Source: Okamejei kenojei (lineage: Eukaryota). From it: 64,000 nt of DNA. Positions 4,721 to 47,163 of this stretch are shown here, one piece after another (position 1 is the first letter of the stretch; each line of letters starts with the position of its first letter). The stretch is from positions 94,860,001-94,924,000 of the forward strand of contig CM069134.1 in NCBI GenBank assembly GCA_035221665.1, in the 5' to 3' direction. Under the pieces are notes generated by a model, which saw only the letters and a program-made list of their open reading frames with translations, searched no databases and had not been told where the DNA came from. The position numbers and the translations under genes were made by a program.

Positions 4721-7280
4721 GGTGGGTGTTGTGACAGGCCACCTAACAGTCAGAGAAGTTGGGGATGGTATCAAACAGGAAATTAGAAATGCGTGCGACA
4801 AAGGCAAAACAGTTATAATGGGTGACTTCAATCTACATATAGATTGGGTTAATCAAATTGGCAGGGGTGCTGAGGAAGAGGATTTTTTGGAATGTATGCG
4901 GGATAGTTATCTAAATCAACATGTAGAGGAACCAACGAGAGAGCAGGCTATTTTAGACTGGGTTTTGAGTAATGAGGAAGGGGTAGTTAGCCGTCTTGTT
5001 GTACGTGCCCCCTTGGGCAAGAGTGACCATAATATGATTGAGTTCTTCATTAGGATGGAGAGTGACATTGTTAATTCAGAAACAATGGTTCTGAACTTAA
5101 AGAAAGGTAACTTTGAGGGTATGAGACGTGAATTGCCAAGATTGACTGGCAATTAATTCTAAAAGGGTTGACGGTGGATATACAATGGAAGACATTTAAA
5201 GACTGCAAGGATGAACTACAAAAATTGTTCATCCCAGTTTGGCAAAAGAATAAATCGTGCATCCGTGGATAACAAGGGAAATCAGGGATAGTATCAAAGC
5301 AAAGGATGATGCGTACAAAGTAGCCAGAAAAAGCAGCATACCAGAGGACTGGGAGAAATTCAGAGACCAGCAGAGGAGGACAAAGGGCTTAATTAGGAAA
5401 GGAAAAATAGATTATGAAAGAAAACTGGCAGGGAACATAAAAACTGACTGCAAAAGTTTTTATAGATATGTGAAGAGAAAGAGGTTAGTTAAAACAAATG
5501 TAGGTCCCTTGCAGTCAGAAACAGGTGAGTTGAATGGGGAACAAGGATATGCGGACCAATTGAATAACTACTTTGGTTCCGTCTTCACTAAGGAAGACAT
5601 AAATAATCTGCCGGAAATAGCAGGGGACTGTGGGTCAAAGGAGGAATTGAGTGAAATCCAGGTCAGTCGGGAAGTGGTGTTGGGTAAATTGAATAGATTA
5701 AAGGCCGATAAATCCCAGGGCCAGATAGGCTGCATCCCAGAGTACTTAAGGAAGTAGCTCAGGAAATAGTGGATGCATTAGTGATAATCTTTCAAAACTC
5801 TTTAGATTCTGGAGTAGTTCCTGAGGATTGGCGGGTAGCAAATGTAACCCCTCTTTTTAAGAAGGGAGGGAGAGAGAAAACGGGGAATTACAGACCAGTT
5901 AGTCTAACATCGGTAGTGGGGAAACTGCTAGAGTCAGTTATTAAAGATGGGATAGCAGCACATTTGGAAAGTGGTGAAATCATTGGACAAAGTCAGCATG
6001 GATTCACGAAAGGTAAATCATGTCTGACGAATCTTGTGGAATTTTTCGAGGATGTAACTAGTAGCGTGGATAAGGGAGAACCAGTGGATGTGGTATATCT
6101 GGACTTCCAGAAGGCTTTCGACAAGGTCCCACATAAGAGATTAGTATACAAACTTAAAGCATACGGTATTAGGGTTCAGTATTGATGTGGATAGAGAACT
6201 GGCTGGCAAACAGGAAGCAAAGAGTAGGAGTAAACGGGTCCTTTTCACAATGGCAGGCAGTGACTAGTGGGGTACCGCAGGCTCAGTGCTGGGACCCCAG
6301 CTATTTACAATATATATTAATGATCTGGATGAGGGAATTGAAGGCAATATCTCCAAGTTTGCGGATGACACTAAGCTGGGGGCAGTGTTTAGCTGTGAGG
6401 AGGATGCTAGGAGACTGCAAGGTGACTTGGATAGGCTGGGTGAGTGGCAAATGTTTGGCAGATGCAGTATAATGTGGATAAATGTGAGGTTATCCACTTT
6501 GGTGGCAAAAACAGGAAAGCAGACTATTATTTAAATGGTGGCCGATTAGGAAAAGGGGAGATGCAGCGAGACCTGGGTGTCATGGTACACCAGTCATTGA
6601 AAGTAGGCATGCAGGTGCAGCAGGCAGTGAAAAAAGCGAATGGTATGTTAGCTTTCATAGCAAAAGGATTTGAGTACAGGAGCAGGGAGGTTCTACTTCA
6701 GTTGTACAGGGTCTTGGTGAGACCACACTTGGAGTATTGCGTACAGTTTTGGTCTCCAAATCTGAGGAAGGACATTATTGCCATAGAGGGAGTGCAGAGA
6801 AGGTTCACCAGACTGATTCCTGGGATGTCAGGACTGTCTTATGAAGAAAGACTGGATAGACTCGGTTTATACTCTCTGGAATTTAGGAGATTGAGAGGGG
6901 ATCTTATAGAAACTTACAAAATTCTTAAGGGTTGGACAGGCTAGATGCAGGAAGATTGTTCCCGATGTTGGGGAAGTCCAGGACAAGGGGTCACAGCTTA
7001 AGGATAAGGGGGAAATCCTTTAAGACCGAGATGAGAAAGACTTTTTTCACACAGAGAGTGGTGAGTCTCTGGAACTCTCTGCCACAGAGGGTAGTTGAGG
7101 CCAGTTCATTGGCTATATTTAAGAGTGAGTTGGATGTGGCCCTTGTGGCTAAGGGGATCAGAGGGTATGGAGAGAAGGCAGTACGGGATACTGAGTTGGA
7201 TGATCAGCCATGATCATATTGAATGGCGGTGCAGGCTCGAAGGGCTGAATGGCCTACTCCTGCACCTAATTTCTATGTTT
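4721..7280 (+). mobile_element. CR1-clade LINE, ORF2 (partial APE endonuclease and RT), 5'-truncated, young
   Basis: Motifs [41 protein letters not shown] and RPHLEYC across consecutive frameshifted ORFs, ending in a ttctatgt tail. Confidence 0.95.
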
Positions 7281-7795
7281 CCTGCATATGTTTCTTAAAC
7301 TGATTTTTGCTTTGCACTGCCAAATCATGCAGTGTGCATTGTAGGATTTAGGACATATCCAGAAATCAGCCACTGTTTACACCTGACATTCTCAATTGCG
7401 TAGCAGTCCTGAAGTTCCATCTGCTGAATCAAACTTTCACACTGGTCAGGGTCTCCCCTATGCACCGAGCCAGACGCTGACATCTCCCTAGGGACAATTC
7501 CTCACTGTCTATTTGATGCCTAGTTTCTGCCATTTTATTGCCTGGGGATAGTTCTAGCTAGTAATAGTGTGTAATTATTGATTCCATGGAGGGCTGAAAG
7601 CTGTTCCTCAGTGAAATTAGATGGTCAACTGCCTGATGCTCATAGAGTGCATGTTAGCTGTCTGACTTTTCTAAATGTTTGTCATTGTCATTGGATCTTA
7701 CAGGCATTTTGCCAGATAGTGCATATGGATAGAGAGCAGGGATAGCTTTTATTTGGCCTGCTATGACTGCATGTAACATCTGTAGCAATATCAAT

Positions 7796-10641: not shown

Positions 10642-12517
10642 AATAGACAATAGGTGCAGGAGTAGGCCATTCGGCACTTCGTGCCAGCACCGGCATTCAA
10701 TATGATCATGGCTGATCATCCCCAATCAGTACCCCGTTCCTGCCTTCTCCCCATATGCCCTGACTCCGCTATTAAGAGCCCTATCTAGCTCTCTCTTAAA
10801 AGCATCCAGAGAACCTGCCTCCACCGCCCTCTGAGGCAGAGAATTCCACAGACTTACCACTCTCTGTGAGAAAAAGTGTTTCCTCGTATCCGTTCTAAAT
10901 GGCTTACTCCTTATTCTTAAACTGTAGCCCCTGGTTCTGGACTCCCCCAACATCAGGAACATGTTTCCTGCCTCTAGCATGTCCAAACCCTTAACAATCT
11001 TATATGTTTCAATGAGATCCCCTCTCATCCTTCTAAACTCCAGAGTGTACAAGCTGCTCCATTCTCTCAGCATATGATAGTCCCGCCATCCCGGGAATTA
11101 ACCTTGTAAACCTACGCTGCATTCCCTCAATAGCAAGAATGTCCTTCCTCAAATTAGGGGACCAAAACTGCACACAATACTCCAGGTGTGGTCTCACTGG
11201 GGCTCTGTACAACTGCAGAAGGTCCTCTTTGCTCCTATATTCGATTCCTCTTGTTATAAAGGCCAACATGCCATTTGCTTTCTTCACTACCTGCTGTACC
11301 TGCATGCTTACTTTCATAGACTGATGAACAATGACCCCCAGTTTCCGTTGTACTTCCCCTTTTCCCAACTTGACGCCATTTGGATAGTAATCTGCCTTCC
11401 TATTTTTGCTACCAAAGTGGATAACCTCACATTTATCCGCATTAAACGTCATCTGCCAGGCATCTGCCCACCCCCCCAACCTCCAAATCACTATGCATTC
11501 TCATAGCATCCTCCTCACAGTTCACACTGCCACCCAGCTTTGTGTCATCTGCAAATTTGCTAATGTTACTTTGGATCCCTTCATCCAAATCATTGATGTA
11601 TATTGTAAATAGCTGCGGTCCCAGCACCGAGCCTTGCGGTACCCCATTAGTCACTGCCTGCCATTCTGAAAGGGACCCATTAATCCCTGCTCTTTGTTTC
11701 CTGTCTGCTAACCACTTCTCTATCCATGTCAGTACTCTACCCCCAATACCATATGCCCTAATTTTGCCCACTAATCTCCTATGTGGGACCTTATCAAATG
11801 CTTTCTGAAAGTCCAGGTACACTACATCCGCTGGCTCTCCCTTGTCCATTTTCCTAATTACATCTTCAAAAAATTCCAGAAGATTAGTCAAGCATGATTT
11901 CCCCTTCATAAATCCATGCTGACACGGACCAATCCTGTTACTGCTATCCAAATGTTCGTCTATTTCATCTTTTATAATTGATTCCAGCATCTTCCCCACC
12001 ACCGATGTCAGGCTAACTAGTCTATAATTCCCTGTTTTCCCTCTCCCGCCTTTCTTAAAAAGCTACCCTCCAATCCACAGGAACTGATCCCAAGTCTATA
12101 GAACATAGGAAAATTATCACCAATGCATCCACGATTTCTAGAGCCACTAAGTACCCTGGGATGCAGACCATCAGGCCCTGAGGTTTTATCAGCCTTCAGT
12201 CCCATCGGTCTCTCCAACACCATTTCCTGCCTAATGTGTATTTCCTTCAGTTCCTCCGTCACCCCAGATCCTCTGGCCACTACTATATCAGGAAGATTGT
12301 TTATGGCCTCCTTAGTGAAGAAAGATCCAAAGTACCTGTTCAACTCATCTGCCATTTCCTTGTTCCCCATAATAAATTAACCTTTTTTGGTCTTCAAGGG
12401 TCCAACTTTGGTCTTAACTAATTTTTTCCCCTTCACATACCTAAAGAAGCTTTTACTATCCTGCTTTATATTCTTGGCTAGCTTCCCTTCGTACCTCATC
12501 TTTCCTCCCCGTATTGT
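10642..12517 (-). mobile_element. Second CR1 family nested in the host CR1
   Basis: RT ORFs at 10726-12370 and a (ctattgt)n tail at about 10642. The host sequence accctctgcttc resumes as cttccatgg after the insert. Confidence 0.88.
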
Positions 12518-17815: not shown

Positions 17816-17897
17816 GATCTGTTTTCAATAGGTACAGCCACTGGGGGCTCCTGCACTCCATGTTTACTTCTCTTCCTCGTTGTAACCCACCTTTGCT

Positions 17898-18889
17898 ATT
17901 TACAATATATATTAATGATCTGGATGAGGGAATTGAAGGCAATATCTCCAAGTTTGCGGATGACACTAAGCTGGGGGGCAGTGTTCGCTGTGAGGAGGAT
18001 GCTAGGAGACTGCAAGGTGACTTGGATAGGCTGGGTGAGTGGGCAAATGTTTGGCAGATGCAGTATAATGTGGATAAATGTGAGGTTATCCACTTTGGTG
18101 GCAAAAACAGGAAAGCAGAATATTATTTAAATGGTGGCCGATTAGGAAAAGGGGAGATGCAGCGAGACCTGGGTGTCATGGTACACCAGTCATTGAAAGT
18201 AGGCATGCAGGTGCAGCAGGCAGTGAAAAAAGCGAATGGTATGTTAGCTTTCATAGCAAAAGGATTTGAGTACAGGAGCAGGGAGGTTCTACTTCAGTTG
18301 TACAGGGTCTTGGTGAGACCACACCTGGAGTATTGCGTGCAGTTTTGGTCTCCAAATCTGAGGAAGGACATTATTGCCATAGAGGGAGTGCAGAGAAGGT
18401 TCACCAGACTGATTCCTGGGATGTCAGGACTGTCTTATGAAGAAAGACTGGATAGACTTGGTTTATACTCTCTGGAATTTAGGAGATTAAGAGGGGATCT
18501 TATAGAAACTTACAAAATTCTTAAGGGGTTGGACAGGCTAGATGCAGGAAGATTGTTCCCGATGTTGGGGAAGTCCAGGACAAGGGGTCACAGCTTAAGG
18601 ATAAGGGGGAAATCCTTTAAGACCGAGATGAGAAAGACTTTCTTCACACAGAGAGTGGTGAGTCTCTGGAACTCTCTGCCACAGAGGGTAGTTGAGGCCA
18701 GTTCATTGGCTATATTTAAGAGTGAGTTGGATGTGGCCCTTGTGGCTAAGGGGATCAGAGGGTATGGAGAGAAGGCAGGTACGGGATACTGAGTTGGATG
18801 ATCAGCCATGATCATATTGAATGGCGGTGCAGGCTCGAAGGGCTGAATGGCCTACTCCTGCACCTAATTTCTATGTTTCTATGTTTCTA
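17898..18889 (+). mobile_element. Young 5'-truncated CR1 copy (same family as 4721-7280)
   Basis: Uninterrupted RT C-terminal frame to 18792, a (ttctatgt)n tail, and a perfect 17-bp TSD TGTAACCCACCTTTGCT at 17881-17897 and 18890-18906. Confidence 0.95.
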
Positions 18890-19830: not shown

Positions 19831-22141
19831 TGTTCTCTAATTTATATGTTACACTATTGTCACACATACTGTACTTCTTCTTGCTTATGGTGTGCACAGC
19901 CTAAAGTTGTAAGTCAACTTATTCTATTTGATCTTTTGTTTGTGCACGTCGGGTTGATTGCATTAGTTGAAACAGGGTGGACCACGTGAAGGTTGCAATC
20001 TCCCACCCCACGTACTGTACTGTATATGTGAATATTTCACATTTTTCTCATACAGATGGGACATTTGAAAATTGGGATATATGAGCAAATCAGCAAACCA
20101 ACAACATTCAAAATTCTTTGATTGTGTTTGATCAGGTTATGCTGAAGAAGGTGGTATCCTGTGAGAGAAATCTCAACTTTCACTTCCAGTAGAGAAATTA
20201 AAATTTCAGGTAATATTTGGTATGGGTTCATTGATTACCGTTTCTCTAGCTTTCTATCGCTGGTACATTGTACTGCCTGCCTATTGATGTTTTCATTTTT
20301 CTCAGCTGCTAGACTTAGAAATTTAATTGCCCACTTTTCCTATTTTAAATAGGTAGGTCTTTGCCCTTTTTTGAGTTTTGTTGTTTTATGTAATTCTGAT
20401 TTTTGTTTACCTTTCCTTCAGACATTGTATGGCTAAGAGAACAAACAGGTTGAGGGTTCATTCAACCATGTCATTTCTTGATGGAGAAGGCTCAATGAAG
20501 AAGACGGGGTAATGAAAAGTGCCCATTTTGGGAAAAAAGTAAATCTAATGTTCTTTATAGGTTTACTGTGGGATTGCAAGTAAAGGAGAAGATAATTATT
20601 GAGGAATGTGATGTTGATGACTATAATACATACAAAAGGATCAGTAAGTCTTTTCAATTTAAATTCAGGAGGCCCCCTAAAAATCAGAGTGAGTTAAATG
20701 TTTCATTGTGGGACCTTGGGTGGGGTATGATGCAAGAATAAATTTTACTTCTAGATAATTTTCCTTGTTGTCATAGTTTCTTTATTCTGATAGCCAAATC
20801 AAACAAGTAACTCTGGACCCTAAGTATCAACTAAAGTAAAATGAAGCACAATATGGAAGGACGCTGCCTCTCATTTGCTGTTGGGGTCTGAATTCAGTTC
20901 TGACCTCTAAGACAATTCAAATACATCATGCACTACATGATAGAAAACTCATGACAATAGCTAAATGACCTGGCTTTGCATCACACAGATCAAGCTTTTC
21001 TCCACACAAAAGTAAGTCAGAATAACACACCGTCAAGAGTCAAGACTCCAGAGTGTTCAGTTGTCAAATGTACTGGTATCAGAACTAATAAATTCTTACT
21101 TGTTGCAGCTTTTCAGGCACATTAGTCCAATTACACATGTATAAATATACAATAATAAATAATACACAAAATTAATTATGAATAATACAGGGAAACCCAG
21201 TCATACTAGTGCAAAATCAAAATATGTATCTGACGGTTGCTGGGAAGAAGCTGTTCTTGAACCTGCTGGTCTTAGTTTACAGGCTCCCATACCTTCTCCC
21301 CAGTGGTAGCAAGATGACTGCAGGCAGGCTGGTGTGAGTCTTTAATGATATCATAGCTTAATTGATGTTGGTTTTGTACCTAGACTGACAAAGAGATCTG
21401 TCCATTTTTAGAAAGGAAGGACAAAGGGAAGAGAAAGCATCAACACCAGAGAATTTTTTTATCTTTCAAAATAATTATTTTCCCCTGTTGCTCAATGCAC
21501 ACATGTACTTCAGAATAATCTTTAAGGGAAGTAAAAGGACACATTTTTAAACAGGATATTTTAAGGTTGGGAGGCGTACTAAAAACTTTTAAGACCAACA
21601 AATAAGGTGCTGAAAATGCACAAATAAGTTATGATAAAGAACTCATGTTTTTGGTATCGCAAAAAGTTCATCCCATTGTAGGGGTTTTAGTTCCCTTTAC
21701 CAGCTGCCCGAGTGATTCTCCCCCTTGTCGGTGGGTCAAACGGCCACCACTCCACTCGAGCGGTTCCCAAGAGAGAATACAAATAAAAAGGGGTTCCCCT
21801 GGGTTCTAGACCTCGGAATTATGATGGGATATGATAAAAAGGTTGACTTGTCCAGAGCATGCTGATGAGAGAAAACAGAAACCAAGACGGACTCTAAGCA
21901 AGTCTAAAATTTACAGGCTTTATTAAACAATGAGAAATCGAATCTCACCAACACTACATAATATGTGGCTAAACTTATGCTTTAAACTAAGACTATGGAA
22001 AGAAAATTATCGGGCATGTCGTAAAAACGTACTTTACACAATTTTAATTACAGATGCACCCCCCCTTTCCCCTTCTCTCAACCTCTATCCTATTTCGGGA
22101 ACTTCTCCAAGTCGTCTGGGGGTACTTACAGCTAGATAGTT

Positions 22142-22338
22142 TTTTGTTTTTTTTAATTTCAAAATAGAACTTTATTCAGGTAATAAATATATACAATACA
22201 TGAACCGACATTTTCGGAGGCAATACAAATTATTCGATGCAGTTTATATACATTTCTCAATTCAGTCCCCCACCCGTGCCACTTATGTGGCCCACTGGCG
22301 TGGGATCCCTTCCCTTATTTTGAGGGGCGTCTCCACCA
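22142..22338 (-). mobile_element. Tx1/L1-clade element 3' UTR, insertion 1
   Basis: A-rich tail and AATAAA on the minus strand. Flanked by TTACAGCTAGATAGTT at 22126-22141 and 22339-22354. Diverged homolog of the 3' UTR of insertion 2. Confidence 0.8.
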
Positions 22339-22354
22339 TTACAGCTAGATAGTT

Positions 22355-23051
22355 TTTTTTTATTTTTTTATTTCAAAATATACTTTATTCGAATGATAAA
22401 TATATAAAATACATTAACCTTGCGGAAAATCCATCCGACATTTTCGGAGGCTGTACAATAGATCAATACAGTTTAGACATTTCTTTCCCCCAAATTTCCA
22501 CAAATCAGTCCCCCACTCGTGCCACAGTGGCGTGGGATACCTTCCCTTATATTGAGGGGCATCTCCACCATACCGTACCCCCCATGTCCAGCAGCGGAAG
22601 GGCGTTAGACTGTGGCCCTCCCCCACCGAGCCTTGGCGTTGGCTGCACCGAGCTTCAGTGCGTCCCTCAGCACGTACTCCTGCAGTCTGCAGCGGGCCAG
22701 TCGGCAACATTCCCTGACGGCCATCTCGCTCTGCTGGGTGGTGAACAATGCTCGGGCAGACCAAACAGCGTCTTTTACCGAGTTGATGACCTTCCAGCAG
22801 CACTCGATGTCAGCCTCTGAATGTGTCCCTGGGAACAGTCCGTAAATCACCGAGTCCTCTGTGACGGAGCTGTTCGGGATAAAGCGTACCAGGGACCCTT
22901 GCATTTTTCTCCAGACTCTTTTAGCAAACCCACACTCTGTAAAGAGGTGGGCAACCGTCTCCTCGCCATAGCAGCCGTCCCGAGGGCAGCGTGCGCTGGC
23001 AGTGAGGTTCCGACGGTGCAGGAAGGATCTGACTGGGAGGGCTCCCCTCAC
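22355..23051 (-). mobile_element. 5'-truncated Tx1/L1-clade retrotransposon (ORF2 C-terminal zinc knuckle and 3' UTR), insertion 2
   Basis: ORF 22605-23051 has LPVRSFLHRR...CPRDGCYGEETVAHLFTEC (CCHC, zf-RVT-like). Poly(A) tail present. Flanked by CAGCTAGATAGTT. Confidence 0.88.
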
Positions 23052-23067
23052 CAGCTAGATAGTTGCA

Positions 23068-23113
23068 AATCAAAATATACTTTATTCGAATGATAAATAT
23101 ATACAATAGATAG
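23068..23113 (-). mobile_element. Very short 3'-end fragment of the same Tx1 family, insertion 3
   Basis: tcaaaatatactttattcgaatgataaatatata is identical to the 3' end of insertion 2. Flanked by CAGCTAGATAGTTGCA at 23052-23067 and 23114-23129. Confidence 0.65.
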
Positions 23114-24679
23114 CAGCTAGATAGTTGCAGGGTCAAAAGCCGTCCAACAGAGCAGTAAAGAGAGCGAGTTCTGGCTTGCTTGTCCCTTTTATACCCGAGT
23201 TTCTCCCTTGAAACCTCCCAGGTGGTCCTCTGGACAAAAGGGTCTTTCGATGATTCCCAGTTTCGATCTGGCATGAACAATAGGCTTCCAAGGATAATGG
23301 GTTTGCTGATGACACAATACCTCAGCCTGATCGTTATCCCATCACCTGGATGGGCTCCCATTGTCCCGATGGATGGGCCATTTACGATGATGATTGTCTT
23401 GCTGCTGGGCTGTTTACCCCCGTCTACTGAGGCTCGGTTCCTTCCTTTGTCTTTCCAAGATAATCTTGTTATCTCCATCCCGGCCTTTCCTGGTCACACC
23501 ATTCGCATAGTCATGTAATGCCCAGGCCCACAGACAGGTTTTAAACTGGTTCTTCCTTTGTGGATTGGAGGTTATTCCTTTGCAGCCAGCAAGTCCGTTT
23601 TAAAAATGTCCATGTCCTTATCCCAGAGTTCTTCCATAATTTTGGAGGATTTGCCCCAATAACTTACACCATTTAAAAATAGCAAGGGAACTAGTTGGTG
23701 TGGTAGACTATATATGGTTCACATACTTAGCTCAGTTCCAGGATTTGTTGCCCATATATTATAACCACAAAGTTGTTCATTTACATACGATATATTCCTT
23801 TCCATGTTTTGCCTTTATTGGATATTTATTCATACAGTAGTAAGGAAAACTAGATTATAAGCAGATCAGAAGCAATTGGAAGAGTTGCAAAGATAAGGAA
23901 TGGGAAGTGAGGTGGGAGAGCTTCAAGGAAATGTAGATATCTTAAAGATGAAAGGTAATATAACAGCACAGAGAATGGAAAGTAGGGTCTACAGGTTTAC
24001 CTCGGATTATCCAAGACGCCACAAATTTGAAATTCGTTTAGAAACTTGAAAATGGCCACCAGGAGCAAAAGTATGGAGGCATATTTTTTAAAGTATTTTA
24101 CAGTTTCCTCAAATATGTTTATAAAGTATTAAGTTATTAGAGATGGGAGGGAATAGAGTATAACTGTATTGGGCAGGTGGAGGGAAAAGCTCCATTATTT
24201 TGGTTTTTGTTTGCTATAGCAGACTATAGCTGCAGCATACTCATTTTGGGGAGTGCATATTTAGAGGGATGGTCAATGGTACTTTATTGTCATGTTTACC
24301 AATGTACCTTGGGGTGTCAGGTGGTAGATCTCTGCAGGATACCCATTCTCTACTAGCCATTGTATTTGTGGCAAGTCAAATTAAGTTTATGGACAATGCT
24401 TGTCTCTCCCACTCATCAAACTTCAGAATATTTGTGGTTTTGATGATGGCAATGCCATTTAGGGTGTTTGGGTGATGAATAAAATTCTCATTACTGCAGC
24501 TAATCAATATCGACCATTCTGAACGATAAACATTCCATAACACTACAGCAGGTGCTGGAGGAACTTAGCGACTCAAGCAACATCTGTGGAGGGAATTGAC
24601 AGGGGATTTTTCAGGTCAGGAACTGTCTTCAGGCATAATACATCAGTGCAAAGTTGATATCATTTGGACCTTCAGTTTC

Positions 24680-33494: not shown

Positions 33495-34612
33495 ATTACC
33501 ATGGTATTGACATGGATAGAGAATTGGTTGGCAGACAGGAAACAAAAAGTAGGAATAAACGGGTCCCTGTCAGAATGACAGGCAGTGGCGAGTGGAGTGC
33601 TGCAAGGCTTGGTGCTGGGGCCGCAACTATTTACAATATATATTCATAATTTAGATAATGGATTAAAAGTAACACTAGCAAATTTGCAGATGACACAAAT
33701 TTGGGTGGCAGTGTGAACTGCGAAGAGGATGCTAGGAAGTTGCAGGGTGACTTGGACAGGTTGAGTGAGTGGGCAGATGCATGGCAGATGCAGTGTAATG
33801 TAGATAAATGTGAGGTTATCCAAATTGTTGGCAAGAACAAGGAGGCAGATTATTATCTCAATGGTGTCAGATTAGGAAAAAGGGAAGTGCAACAAGACCC
33901 GGATGTCCTTGTACACCAGTCACTGAAAGTAAACATGCAGACACAGCAGGCAGTTAAGAAAGCTAATGGCATGTTGGCCTTCATAACAAGAGGATTTGAG
34001 TATACTGTAGGAGTAAAAAGTTCCTTCTGCAGTTGTATAGGGCTCTGGTGAGACCACATCTGGAGTATTGTGTACAGTTTTGGTCTCCTATTTTGAGGAA
34101 GGATATCCTTGCTATTGAGGCAGTGCAGCACAGGTTCACGAGGTTAATCCCTGGGATGGTGGGACTGTCATATGAGGAAAGATTGGAAAGACTAGGCTTG
34201 TATTCACTCGAATTTCGAAGGATGAGAGGGGATCTTATATAAACGTATAAAATTATTCAAGGACTGGACAAGCTAGATACAGGAAAAATGTTCCCATTGT
34301 TTGGGAAGTCCAGAACGAGGGGCCATAGTCTAAGAATAAAGGCGAGGCCATTTCAAACTGAGATGAGAAAAAAAATCACCCAGAGAGTTGTGAATTTGTG
34401 GAATTCTCTGCCACAGAATTCAGTAGAGGCCTATTCACTGGATTAATTTAGAAGAGGGTGAGATAGAGCTCTAGGGGCTAGCGGAATCAAGGGATATGAG
34501 GAGAAGGCAAGCACGGGTTGCTGACTGTGGATGATCAGCCATGATCACAATGAATGGTGGTGCTGGCTCGAAGGGCCAAATGGCCTCCTCCTGCATCTAT
34601 TTTCTGTTTCTA
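33495..34612 (+). mobile_element. Decayed CR1 LINE 3' fragment
   Basis: WIENWLADRKQ, KCEVI and RPHLEYCVQFWSP with frameshifts, followed by a CR1 3' UTR. Confidence 0.9.
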
Positions 34613-35204
34613 TCAAGGCTGCCAGTGGCGGCAACGATAGCATTTTTTAACATTTTGCTGCAGAACCACTTGAAGGTAGAATATAGCATATCCTCCTCCT
34701 TCCTCCTTCCTCCCCCACTCCACCACCTTTCCACGTTGACATTGCTCTGTTTATGTGAATACTGTTATCCTGGTGTTATGTTCTATACAGCTATTTCCCT
34801 GTGCCGTTACCTCAGCTAGTAATCTGCTGGAGGATTGCTTGCAGGACCACTGATACCTAGCAACCCATGAATGCTAATTTTGCGTCATAATAATAGCATC
34901 TTATGCTTCCACTGCAAATGAGCTCTGAAATAAAAACAGAGTGCTTCCTTGCATTTCCTCCAATTCTGATGAAATGTTAACTCTGTTACTTTCTCTACAG
35001 AACGCTGCCTAACCTGCTGAGTGCTTCCAGTATTTCCTATTTTTATTTGAACTTACACAACCTCAATCTCAACTTCTGCTGCAGCAGCTAATATTTTTGG
35101 GGAAGCTGATGCATTGCAGTGGAAACAAATTCATCAGCAAAAAATGTAGGAAACATTTAGTAGGTTAGTCAGCTTCTGTGGAAAGAGAAACAGTTAATAT
35201 TTCA

Positions 35205-44614: not shown

Positions 44615-45628
44615 CTAAACCAAGTGGGTCCCGTTGGGCCCCGTTCCCCCAATGCAATATTCCACCGCCTACCCCTTCCCTCAACGCAACCCGTTTCCAC
44701 CACTCACCCGTTTCTCTAACATAACCCGTTCCCCCAACGCAATGTTCCACCACTCACCCATAGCCCCCAACTGCGCATACGCTGCTGATTTCCCCTCATC
44801 CCCCAACACTCCCACCCCCTCCCTTCACCCTCCCTCTTCTCTCTCCTCTCCTCCTCCACTCCCTCACCTCTCCCTCCCTCTCCTTTCCCCTACCCTCAAT
44901 CACTTCCTACCCTCAGTCACACCCTTACTCCCTACCTCCATAATCCCTCTACTGCCTCACCCCCGACCTGTTGGGTCCCATTCCCCCAACGCAATATTCC
45001 ACCATTCACCCGTTCCCTCAACACAACCCGTTCCCTCAATGCAATATTCCACCACTCACCCATAGCCCCCAACTGTGTAGGTGCAGCTCATTTCCCCTCA
45101 TCCCCAACACTCCCCCCCCCCTCCTCACCTTCCCTCTTCTCTCCCCTCTCCTCCTCCACTCCCTCCCTCCCTGTCCTTCAGTCACTCCCTACCCTCAGTC
45201 ACTCCCTCCCTCCCTCCATAACCTCTCTCCCCTCCCAATCCCCCTTGATGTCATTGTGAGGTGGAAGCTGATGTCTTTTTTAATGTAAATGTGATCCCAT
45301 TGTGATGTAATTGTGGGATTGATCGCTGCTGACAGGCAGTTTATGTAAATGAGACCCCGTTATGACATCATAGCTGCTAACTGCCACAGCAACTTGAATT
45401 GCTTTTTCTCAAAGTGGGGTTTTGTAAAGTTAAAAATGTGAATAACTTGTAAAATATAACATCAATCTGAACGAAACTTGATAAAAACACACGACAGGAC
45501 AATTGTGAGTAAGGTGGTCCAAAATGTGAGCACTATCATGTTCCGTTTTGGTGTAGTTCCGGGAGCACATGGCACTCAGACAGACACACACACAGAATCA
45601 CAAACAGGATGAGAGTTTTAGTAATATA
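44615..45628 (-). mobile_element. Non-autonomous Helitron-like element with internal repeats
   Basis: On the minus strand it starts TATATTACTAAAACTCTCATC and ends with a GC hairpin (ggggcccaacgggaccc) followed by acttggtTTAG|T. Internal repeats of cccccaacgcaatattccacc. Confidence 0.55.
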
Positions 45629-47163
45629 CTAGACCAAGTGCAGTGGGGGTGGGGGGCGGGGGCGGCATGCGGTGTCACACACACTATCCACCCACACACG
45701 CAGACTAACTAGCCCCCCGCACACACACTAACTACCCCCCTTGATATTATATTAATATTATTAATTTGCTCCTTGAGAGAGGGGGTGTGGGGAGGGGAGA
45801 GGTGGGGGAAGGGAGGGGGAGGAAATGGAGGGTGGGGAGGGGGTGGAGGGAATAGGATAGTGCAGGGTGGGAGGGGGAGGGGGAGGGGGAGGGGGAGGGG
45901 GAGGGGGAGAGAAAGGGGAGAGAGAGGAGTGGGGAGGAGAGGGGAGAAAGAGAGGGGGAGAGAGAGAGGGGGGGGGGGGAGGGGAGAGAGATAGAGGGGA
46001 GAGAGAGGGAGGAGAGCAAGAGGGGCAGAGAGAGGGGGGAGGGAGAGAGAGGGGGAGAGGGAGAGATGGGTAGAGAGAGATGGGGGAGAGAGAGAAGTGG
46101 GGGAGAGTGAGAGAGGGGAGAGAGAGAAGTGGGGGAGAGTGAGAGAGGGTGGGAGAGAGGGGGAAGAGAGAGATAGGGGCGAGAGAGAGAGAGGGGAGAG
46201 AGAGGAGGGGGGAGAGAGAGCGGGAGAGAGATGGGGAGAGAGAGATGGAGAGAGAGAGAGAGAGGTGGGGGGAGAGTGAGGAGGGGAGAGAGAGAGATAG
46301 GGAGAGAGATAGAGAGGTGGGGGAGAGAGAGAGGAGGGAGGGGGAGAGAGGGGGGGTCTGCAAGTTTTTTTTCAAAGCTCGTTTGCCCGCTCGCAAGATT
46401 TTTTTCAAAGGACTTGTGAGCAGCGCGACTGGCAGCGCGTTCGGTTTGCAGCGGGAGGGGGGGAGGGGCGCAAGGGGCAGGTTTCCCAGAGGGAGTAATG
46501 GCCGCGAGGGCCACCTTCTCATCGCGTGCCCTGCATGACGATAACGGCCACCGCCATGTTCTACCATTGGGCGGGGGAGACGGAGAAGATTCAGATGCAA
46601 GCCGGTGGCCTCCGGTGACCGGCTGTGACCTGCTGTGACCACTGGTGACCGGTAGTGTCCTCCGGATCTGCAGAACGCTCGTTCTTTCTGTGCATATTGA
46701 GAACCGGTGGGGGGGGGGGGGGTTGTAACGTACCTCATGGAAAACTGCGCATGCGCATTGACATTAATTCGGAGCGGCGGGCAGGCAGGGCCACAAGCGA
46801 GCTGAGCCACGAGCAAGGGCATTAATATTTTTAAAATATGTCAGTTTGGTTATAAATTTTAGTAAATATTTCGGGAAATAATTGACCAGATTTATAGAGG
46901 ATTGTATTTTTGAAATATAAGGCAAATTTCTACCAGAAAATGTAAAAATGTCACTGTTATTGTAACGTCAGCAGCTGGGCAGTGGTCAGATTTTAAAAAA
47001 AGGTCAGATTGGTCAACAATTTTAATTAAAAAGACAGGAAAATAATGTACCAAATGTACAGAGGCGTGGATTTCTAAAATCACAAGGAAAATCGCTACTG
47101 AAATATGTAAACATTTCCCTGTTTCAGCATCTGGAATTTCGAGGAGATACGTTTCAAAGGCAA
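45629..47163 (-). mobile_element. Second Helitron-like element abutting the first and running into the gap
   Basis: Same terminal motif acttggtCTAG at 45629, a CpG-rich interior and a long purine tract. The 5' end is not visible because of the gap. Confidence 0.45.
45775..46356 (+). repeat. Polypurine (G/A) low-complexity tract
   Basis: About 580 bp made almost entirely of G and A; source of the spurious Pro/Leu/Ser and Gly/Glu/Arg ORFs. Confidence 0.97.

Follow-up and report, generated by a model that had tools for sequence, protein, structure and literature searches.

Why should three pieces of one LINE group lie stacked at a single site inside a solo LTR, and what does this LINE recognise there? 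The locus lies in the window analysed here, a stretch of 64,000 nucleotides from Okamejei kenojei (contig CM069134.1, positions 94,860,001 to 94,924,000). The LTR begins with TG, ends with CA and has CCAT on either side (Table 1); in natural empty copies its two halves are joined without any insert. It harbours three 5'-truncated Tx1 pieces, all on the minus strand in the same orientation. Four occurrences of the sequence CAGCTAGATAGTT, at 22129, 22342, 23052 and 23114, are the only ones on either strand of the window; the chance of three extra copies within 1 kb is ~1e-15. The duplications of the stack measure 16, 13 and 16 bp, and the nick for insert 3 is displaced by 3 nt from the main nick. 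A sequence-only reading had described the repeats, the three pieces and the duplication lengths, and all of these proved exact; its proposal that the family targets a site in an LTR family is considered below.

Table 1. Features of the filled solo LTR (positions in the window)
Feature	Position	Strand	Remarks
CCAT	21673-21676 and 23669-23672		4-bp duplication flanking the LTR
Solo LTR	21677..23668	-	of a ~10-kb retrovirus-like element; ~1.0 kb minus inserts
AATAAA	21919..21924	-	predicted poly(A) signal of the LTR
GTAAGT	22124..22129	-	putative, splice-donor-like; immediately downstream of target
Target copy 1	22126..22141	.	16 bp; runs on into downstream LTR half
Insert 1	22142..22338	-	197 bp; 3' UTR and A tail; older subfamily
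Target copy 2	22339..22354	.	16 bp
Insert 2	22355..23051	-	697 bp; young copy: ORF2 C-terminus, 3' UTR, A tail
ORF2 C-terminus	22605-23051		in insert 2
Target copy 3	23052..23067	.	
Insert 3	23068..23113	-	46-bp 3' end; young subfamily; without A tail
Target copy 4	23114..23129	.	16 bp; runs on into upstream LTR half
Main nick	between 23126 and 23127		
TATA box	23187..23193	-	of the LTR; promoter role presumed

Inserts 1 and 2 differ by 21 substitutions over 165 aligned bases, with 6 gaps in addition, and insert 3 has a single difference from insert 2 over 39 bases. A tandem duplication of one insert, already discounted on the letters alone, is ruled out, as the inserts differ in both subfamily and length. 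Insert 2, which contains the C-terminus of ORF2 (zf-RVT match, E 6e-8), has 39 other genomic copies at 98% identity. The stack would have little bearing on re-targeting if it had arisen in one event, by repeated priming at a single nick, or partly from a ready-made read-through (3'-transduced) RNA. There is a composite insertion of just this kind on another contig (L148), where a near-identical twin of insert 1 (3 differences in 182), an LTR-derived spacer and a young copy form one unit, inserted at a Penelope site and bounded by a single 17-bp duplication. Since insert 1 and its spacer are present as passengers at this non-LTR locus, target-like spacers are not always local duplications. Moreover, when 100 3' ends of the family were taken without selection, 10 adjoined another family copy. 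Nevertheless, inserts 1 and 2 belong to different subfamilies, none of the 8 minority variants of insert 2 is common to the young part of L148, the spacer has the local A variant, which is present in only 5 of the 55 copies of LTR subfamily A, and 22 other LTR copies have been filled independently. A single-event or read-through origin of the stack thus seems improbable.

A census in which copies were counted by coordinates found the site filled in 23 of 86 LTR copies: 19 of 55 in subfamily A (35%) and 4 of 31 in subfamily B. Truncation and duplication edge are specific to each filled copy, all the insertions are in sense orientation, and none of the 86 copies carries an insertion elsewhere within the LTR. 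The LTR site is a real hot spot that has been filled repeatedly and independently. An LTR element spreading a pre-filled LTR is ruled out by the copy-specific truncations and duplication edges. In 13 of 16 stacked pairs the younger piece is the upstream one, and later insertions lie at the upstream junction even where the earlier insert supplies the cut letters (L047, L095, L096). Filling differs between subfamilies, whose target letters differ (without the ascertained copies, 17/53 in A versus 3/30 in B; p 0.03), and between contexts, with 2 of 21 LTRs joined to internal sequence filled versus 17 of 34 that are solo or incomplete (Fisher p 0.003); the 5' LTRs of subfamily A are filled in 0 of 8. 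The age of the LTRs was rejected as the reason for filled versus empty copies: their divergence is alike (p 0.58), the mean of the empty set being pulled by outliers.

To this extent the sequence-only reading, with its LTR-specialised parasite of a parasite, was right: the site is used again and again. Such specialisation would suit a family that has filled 35% of subfamily A at one base, and among the crocodilian Tx1 elements Tx1-8_Crp and Tx1-4_AMi are described as preferring LTR elements (PMC4494074). The 3' flanks of other copies, on which that reading had staked its claim, tell another story: they are non-LTR in 29 of the 29 best-matching copies, and among 100 unselected 3' ends only 3 adjoin the LTR site directly, or 4 counting one stacked behind another. 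Among 29 other copies of insert 1's subfamily, none lies in the LTR, and the family carries a U2-derived head and fills U2 and U1 genes. The flanks thus refute LTR specialisation at the level of the family, and an LTR specialist is highly improbable.

What, then, is this LINE? Its ORF1 has RNA-binding and CCHC domains, its ORF2 an APE endonuclease, reverse transcriptase (RT) and zinc finger, and it has an A tail and target-site duplications, as Tx1 elements do. The endonuclease is of the APE type (PF03372, E 1e-13; best structure match, human L1 ORF2p) and not restriction-like, the feature that separates Keno from Utopia; the 822 homologues come without family names. A head derived from U2 (nt 1-47) is found on 5 of 6 full-length copies examined, and also on L272. 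The 5' junction of L027 carries a U2 piece that might suggest captured RNA; this reading was rejected, the piece being the element's own head, inverted. Spacers from U1 and from the LTR accompany some copies (L292, L148).

Of 30 true U2 loci, 19 are filled, in sense. The nick falls after +37 in 9, where the 3' flank starts from U2 nt 38, or 39 if an A is counted to the tail; it falls at +35/36 in 7, at +32 in 2 and further in in 1. Genome-wide there are ~28 filled U2-type places, those listed being without exception either full-length U2 copies or element heads; as the search pattern needs five unbroken T and recovered only 8 places for the LTR, it misses perhaps half. For U1, two stretches of one cluster hold 19 copies, of which 9 are filled, and there are also copies on four other contigs; 7 of the nicks are at +39/40 and 2 at +31/32. 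These fill rates are inflated, because several filled U1 and U2 copies are duplicates of one event. In its U2 head and its U2 targets the LINE is of the Keno type; it uses U1 as well, and the LTR is its third strong target. For other snRNA or tRNA-like targets, Rfam was applied to 15 cluster stretches and to 80 of the 90 flanks from single loci; U1 and U2 alone were recovered, in a sample too small to speak against U4, U5, U11 or U12.

The family's 3' end has 868 exact matches in the genome, and most copies are dispersed at weakly chosen sites; its targeting is leaky. Approximately 71 of the 100 unselected copies are at unclassified sites, and weaker recurrent sites lie in coding regions of Penelope-like (8/100), Rex-like (5/100) and RTE-like (2/100) elements, with no evident start there. 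None of the 100 is in U2, contigs 1-3 having been sampled and the U2 cluster being on another contig. The 42 dispersed sites with a readable duplication have a core of two to three bases only, and in just 1 of them does a TATA box stand at the corresponding distance; the CpG excess around dispersed sites falls short of significance when the hot spots are left out (p 0.19).

For Tx1-clade elements, the choice of target is commonly ascribed to an endonuclease that reads sequence. Aligned on the nick, the U1, U2 and LTR sites agree at 7, 11 and 13 of 40 positions, and the idea that the LTR mimics U2 is ruled out by this alignment (13/40, 5/20). On the weak core RAT|GC, the used site in one empty LTR is equalled by 11 other places there; among 2020 places the LTR site is in the top 12 and the U1 site in the top 3, so sequence does contribute. 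The U2 site is poor by this measure, 132 places in one LTR scoring as well. The uninterrupted U2 site has 329 exact matches in the genome; outside the U2 cluster, 22 of 22 sampled proved to be fragments lying within other repeats, 18 of them in a single DIRS-like repeat, and the ~300 repeat-embedded fragments with a perfect site are without insertion. Being promoter-less, these decoys act as a natural control.

From the first T of the TATA box to the main nick the distance is 67 nt in 17 of the 22 empty A copies that could be measured and in 14 of 20 B copies, and is thus common to two subfamilies with different target letters. TATA boxes lie 28-31 nt from the start of transcription, which would put the LTR start at 23162-23165 and the nick at a predicted +36 to +39. 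A fixed offset from the start is seen across U1 and U2; that of the LTR uses the predicted start.

We consider it probable, with some reserve, that this Keno-type LINE, in filling U2 and U1 genes and the LTR, is placed by the position of its nick behind an active RNA polymerase II start and not by a long recognition sequence. The ribonucleoprotein would be brought to, or admitted at, the DNA just beyond the promoter-bound polymerase, and its apurinic-type endonuclease would nick the template strand ~31-43 nt downstream of the start, at the nearest pyrimidine|purine step of the weak core. Reverse transcription would be primed at this nick and the second strand cut 5-25 nt off. With the upstream promoter left intact, the same offset could be used again, and newer copies would pile up upstream of older ones. 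An insert lying in sense behind the start could be transcribed from the host promoter, and the U2-derived head of the full-length copies is the expected trace of such transcription. On this positional account the scarcity of filled proviral LTRs must be put down to their being silenced, a further assumption. The many unclassified sites of unselected copies, the near-absence of a matching TATA box at dispersed sites and the recurrent sites in coding regions also speak against it.

Alternatively, the endonuclease may read DNA sequence or shape alone, U1, U2 and the LTR being its best substrates, silenced chromatin shielding the U2 decoys and the common offset being coincidental. The core rankings of the LTR and U1 sites, the heavier filling of A than of B and the recurrent sites in coding regions of other elements all fit this proposal, and it has been argued that the endonuclease mainly determines target choice (PMC4494074). 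It is nonetheless unlikely, though to be taken seriously: the three targets have no extended sequence in common, the U2 site itself ranks low on the core, three independent targets are all nicked at ~+31 to +43 (the LTR start being predicted), and re-insertion occurs where a previous insert provides the letters. Guidance by RNA, with the U2-derived head or pairing to nascent RNA leading the particle to its sites, might be suspected from U2 1-47 on full-length copies and from the spacers carried along; however, near the nick neither U1 nor the LTR shows an evident match to the head, and perfect U2 decoys are left unfilled, which makes such guidance decidedly improbable.

A bolder extension of placement by position is that this vertebrate LINE aims at the promoter-proximal region, ~+37, of active polymerase II genes generally, so that "U2 specificity" is merely what selection spares: only multicopy targets (U1, U2 and solo LTRs) would tolerate insertion. 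We put this forward tentatively, as somewhat less than an even prospect. Were it true, one tethering mechanism would unite Keno with those Tx1 families that target snRNA genes and LTRs, and their insertions would be a fossil map of germ-line promoter activity.

As for the host of the stack, paired-LTR copies carry gag, protease, RT, tether, RNase H, integrase and a third ORF. This element resembles the lokiretroviruses and foamy-like endogenous retroviruses (PMC7947760) in having gag, pol and a third ORF between LTRs and in the tether and RNase H of its pol; the nearest solved structure to its RT is that of foamy virus. A possible difference is that four broken-frame open pieces of the third ORF, which has homologues in a sawshark only, gave no match to the fusion glycoprotein PF00523.

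How does the LINE compare with known systems? Keno is described as a Tx1-clade, APE-type LINE specific for U2 snRNA genes (PMC4494074, PMC4640811); the 3' flank is given as U2 nt 39 for Utopia, and that of Keno is stated to be identical. Our family is like Keno in its two ORFs, apurinic-type endonuclease, RT, zinc finger and sense insertion in U2, with the 3' flank at U2 nt 38/39 in 9 of the 19 filled loci. It is unlike Keno, as far as the published descriptions go, in being mostly dispersed, in a nick that shifts by several bases and in U1 and LTR fill rates of the same order as that of U2. By the published rule, which calls a family target-specific when >20% of its flanks are at the target (PMC4494074), it is specific neither for the LTR (3-4/100; 0/29 best-matching) nor for U2 (0/100 on contigs 1-3; ~28 places versus 868 3'-end matches). 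The crocodilian Tx1-Mar group, in which Tx1-11_Crp has a U2 head, is similar in several respects: it is related to Keno, prefers other transposons in a relaxed manner, has heads derived from snRNA and tandem insertions, and uses two hot spots whose sequences are not recognisably alike; in the descriptions of PMC4494074, however, targets are not linked to distance from a transcription start. A single family in U1, U2 and an LTR was not found in the portions of the literature consulted, although Figs S3-S6 of that paper may bear on it.

Three unrelated sequences at a matching offset, together with ~300 empty perfect decoys, make the choice between sequence and position testable, with controls built in. 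If position is what counts, it would explain target switching in Tx1 (U2, U1, U5, transposons, LTRs) and the snRNA heads, and would point to a means of inserting DNA directly behind a promoter of choice. There is a precedent for an APE LINE with position-defined targeting: TRE5-A of Dictyostelium inserts 44-54 bp upstream of tRNA genes, its ORF1 protein binding TFIIIB (PMC5911963). On the positional account both would be non-LTR elements integrating at a defined position beside a promoter complex, but TRE5-A works with polymerase III, upstream and in the opposite orientation, whereas our LINE would work with polymerase II, downstream and in sense. If placed by position, it would be the polymerase II counterpart of TRE5-A.

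The stack of LINE pieces read from the sequence alone is borne out on closer measurement. The 13-mer target has four copies and no further one in the window, and the three pieces of one LINE group that lie between them (197, 697 and 46 bp) are bounded by unequal duplications of 16, 13 and 16 bp. The divergence claimed for inserts 1 and 2 amounts to 21 substitutions in 165 bases plus 6 gaps; inserts 2 and 3 have one difference in 39 bases. The host is, as proposed, a solo LTR, with CCAT on both flanks. Contigs from a separate study of this organism, and from a related one, span both LTR-flank junctions and show that the LTR insertion was not created by the assembly, an argument that applies to the outer junctions and not to the inner stack. 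The three-insert feature is real. Elsewhere in the window there are degenerate tandem repeats and two 1-kb copies, 98.3% identical and probably a young LINE 3' end, with relatives at 77-79%.

Positions of the features in the window
Feature	Position	Strand	Basis
13-mer target copies	22129; 22342; 23052; 23114
Insert 1	22142-22338	minus
Insert 2	22355-23051	minus
Insert 3	23068-23113	minus
Solo LTR	21677-23668	minus
TATA box of LTR	23193-23187	minus	sequence
AATAAA of LTR	21924-21919	minus	sequence
1-kb pair	6300-7295; 17895-18888
Relatives of 1-kb pair	10643-12454; 33504-34613
Degenerate tandem repeats	44672-46356

Paired host LTRs are separated by 9-10 kb, and between them lie a broken gag (zinc knuckle), protease, RT, tether, RNase H, integrase and a third ORF. 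Among solved structures the RT is closest to that of foamy virus (149 bits; MLV 122, Ty3 97). The third ORF (loci L136-L141) is broken by stops and frameshifts in all three copies read; it has no match in a Pfam search, and a homologue search returned sawshark sequences only, which makes a shark or ray the likely source of the genome. The host element is retrovirus-like and may be a candidate lokiretrovirus, as far as that group is described in the accessible part of PMC7947760.

The sequence-only reading was half right: the LTR site has been used repeatedly, but the LINE family is not specific to it. All 29 other best insert-2 copies examined (of 39 scored) have non-LTR flanks, as do 29 of 29 insert-1 relatives. 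An exact 34-mer from the LINE 3' end has 868 genomic matches, and in the first 100 of these, on contigs 1-3, the flank adjoins the LTR site in 3, another LINE copy in 10 (one of them within an LTR stack), a Penelope-like site in 8, a Rex-like site in 5, an RTE-like site in 2 and a U1 gene in 1, with 71 unclassified; the three repeat labels are presumptive, being assigned from motifs in the encoded sequence. Where the duplication is readable (42 sites; 10-30 bp, mode 16), only a weak core is in common, RAT|GC, and a TATA box lies at the matching distance in just one of these dispersed sites. The CpG excess around insertion sites (p 0.03) drops to p 0.19 once hot spots are removed.

Occupied and empty LTR sites were counted in 86 distinct copies, the best matches of three similarity searches and one motif search, from about 285 candidates. 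In this sample the site is filled in 19 of the 55 subfamily A copies and in 4 of the 31 of subfamily B; these counts take in the window copy, two LINE-found copies and four empty entries with a faulty anchor or a break at the site. With ascertained copies left out, A is filled more often than B (17 of 53 versus 3 of 30, p 0.03). The 29 LINE 3' ends all have the sense orientation and lie within a few bases of one position, and every filled copy has its own truncation point and duplication edges. Random insertion would yield about 0.0004 hits among the 868 LINE copies. No insertion was seen elsewhere inside the LTR in the 86 copies, which the searches biased towards those intact beside the site. 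The LTR site is a hot spot for this LINE. LTRs with internal sequence attached are filled in 2 of 21 cases versus 17 of 34 for solo or incomplete ones (p 0.003, the solo labels being approximate), and 5' LTRs in none of 8. Four copies of the host LTR within the U1 gene cluster (L269-L271, G000:C33:11568000-11616000) are all empty.

The full-length LINE is about 5.4 kb long, with an ORF1 of ZCCHC3-type RNA-binding domains plus CCHC and an ORF2 of APE, RT and zinc finger; none of 8 long copies has an intact ORF2. A U2-derived head stands at the 5' end of 5 of 6 full-length copies and of locus L272 (Rfam U2, 44-62 bits). There are at least 48 true U2 copies, 42 in one cluster, and the LINE occupies 19 of the first 30 such loci in sense orientation, about five of the 19 looking like duplicates of a single event; the nick follows nt 37 in 9. 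The same U2 flank is given for Keno in the available text of PMC4640811. The LINE thus behaves like Keno at U2 genes, yet it falls short of the published rule for target specificity, 20% of flanks (PMC4494074, as far as accessible). It is a leaky Keno-type element, with the LTR as its third strong target. In one U2 gene (L292, G000:C15:1801480-1804503) two LINE pieces are stacked around a spacer that derives from U1 and was likely carried over from a U1 locus by 3' transduction. At L290 and L291 the same U2 site is occupied by another element, whose tail is T-rich.

What the targets have in common may be a distance. From the first TATA T to the LTR nick we count 67 nt in 17 of the 22 empty A copies that could be measured and in 14 of 20 from B, a subfamily with other target letters. 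TATA-to-start spacing is usually 28-31 nt, and the LTR nick is accordingly predicted at +36 to +39, similar to the U2 nick. A position reading predicts insertions in U1 genes as well, and these are present. Two stretches of a U1 cluster hold 19 copies, of which 9 carry an insertion, at +39/40 in 7 and at +31/32 in 2, and further cases lie on other contigs; several filled copies have a common 5' junction and so were amplified, and the differing nicks and loci still require at least five events. In a U1 array of 5.2-kb units (L433-L436, G000:C33:11780000-11810000), an intact U1 is followed by 860 bp of downstream flanking sequence, then by 1.9 kb of LINE and by U1 from nt 40 or 33; each insertion is preceded by an intact U1 gene, and nicks differ among copies with one 5' junction. 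Aligned on the nick, the U1, U2 and LTR sites have 7, 11 and 13 of 40 positions in common, which is chance level. Sequence letters contribute too, since occupancy is higher in A than in B and the weak core score places the LTR and U1 sites high. The dispersed majority, the near absence of TATA boxes there, the few filled attached LTRs and the non-significant CpG excess weigh against a position reading. We nevertheless consider it rather probable that the nick is set by position behind an active start, the LTR start being a predicted one.

Decoys, U2 fragments with a perfect site outside true U2 genes, serve as a control provided by the genome itself. Exact matches to the uninterrupted U2 site number 329; outside the cluster all 22 sampled are U2 fragments, 18 of them in one repeat that we take, from its motifs, to be DIRS-like, with copies 86-94% alike and about as old as the LTRs. 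A U2 site followed by a T run occurs at about 28 distinct places, of which 16 were read and are full-length U2 copies or element heads; the remainder coincide with true-U2 coordinates. By this pattern, which misses broken tails and finds 8 places for the LTR, no filled decoy was seen among about 300, versus 19 of 30 true U2 loci. This shows that sequence alone is insufficient for targeting; the control cannot show a tether, because silenced decoys would look alike. Hundreds of copies of the DIRS-like family (L307-L311, L406-L419) contain U2 from nt 3 to about nt 92, and a similar U2 piece occurs in a second repeat (L411, L414, L420).

In 13 of 16 adjacent pairs (including two from the window and one transduced pair) the upstream piece is nearer the young reference, and at three stacked loci (L047, L095, L096) letters of the earlier insert lie in the later duplication, a pattern compatible with a promoter-side upstream anchor that survives each insertion. 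The composite locus L148 (G000:C30:13717500-13718700) is made up of an insert-1 twin, a spacer derived from the LTR, 820 bp of a young LINE copy and a U6 piece in inverted orientation (85 bits). A single 17-bp duplication surrounds all the parts, and the Penelope-like site that holds them has no LTR in its vicinity. The structure of L148 suggests read-through transduction, or template jumping, plus second-strand priming on U6 RNA; LTR-site stacks have thus been transcribed and moved. For the window itself three local events are favoured, because insert 2 and the young part of L148 have no minority variants in common and the window spacer has a rare local variant.

In the literature covered (without Repbase, Dfam and most subscription papers), we found no report of a single family using U1, U2 and an LTR, nor of Tx1 elements that choose their sites by distance from a polymerase II start. 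TRE5-A, an APE LINE, is described as targeting tRNA genes by position (PMC5911963, in the part available). Published crocodilian Tx1 elements already include LTR-preferring families, and snRNA heads as well as tandem insertion are on record for them (PMC4494074, accessible text); the LINE described here has the snRNA head and the tandem insertions in common with them. With Keno it has in common the U2-gene flank; unlike Keno it is leaky, filling U1 genes and the LTR as well.
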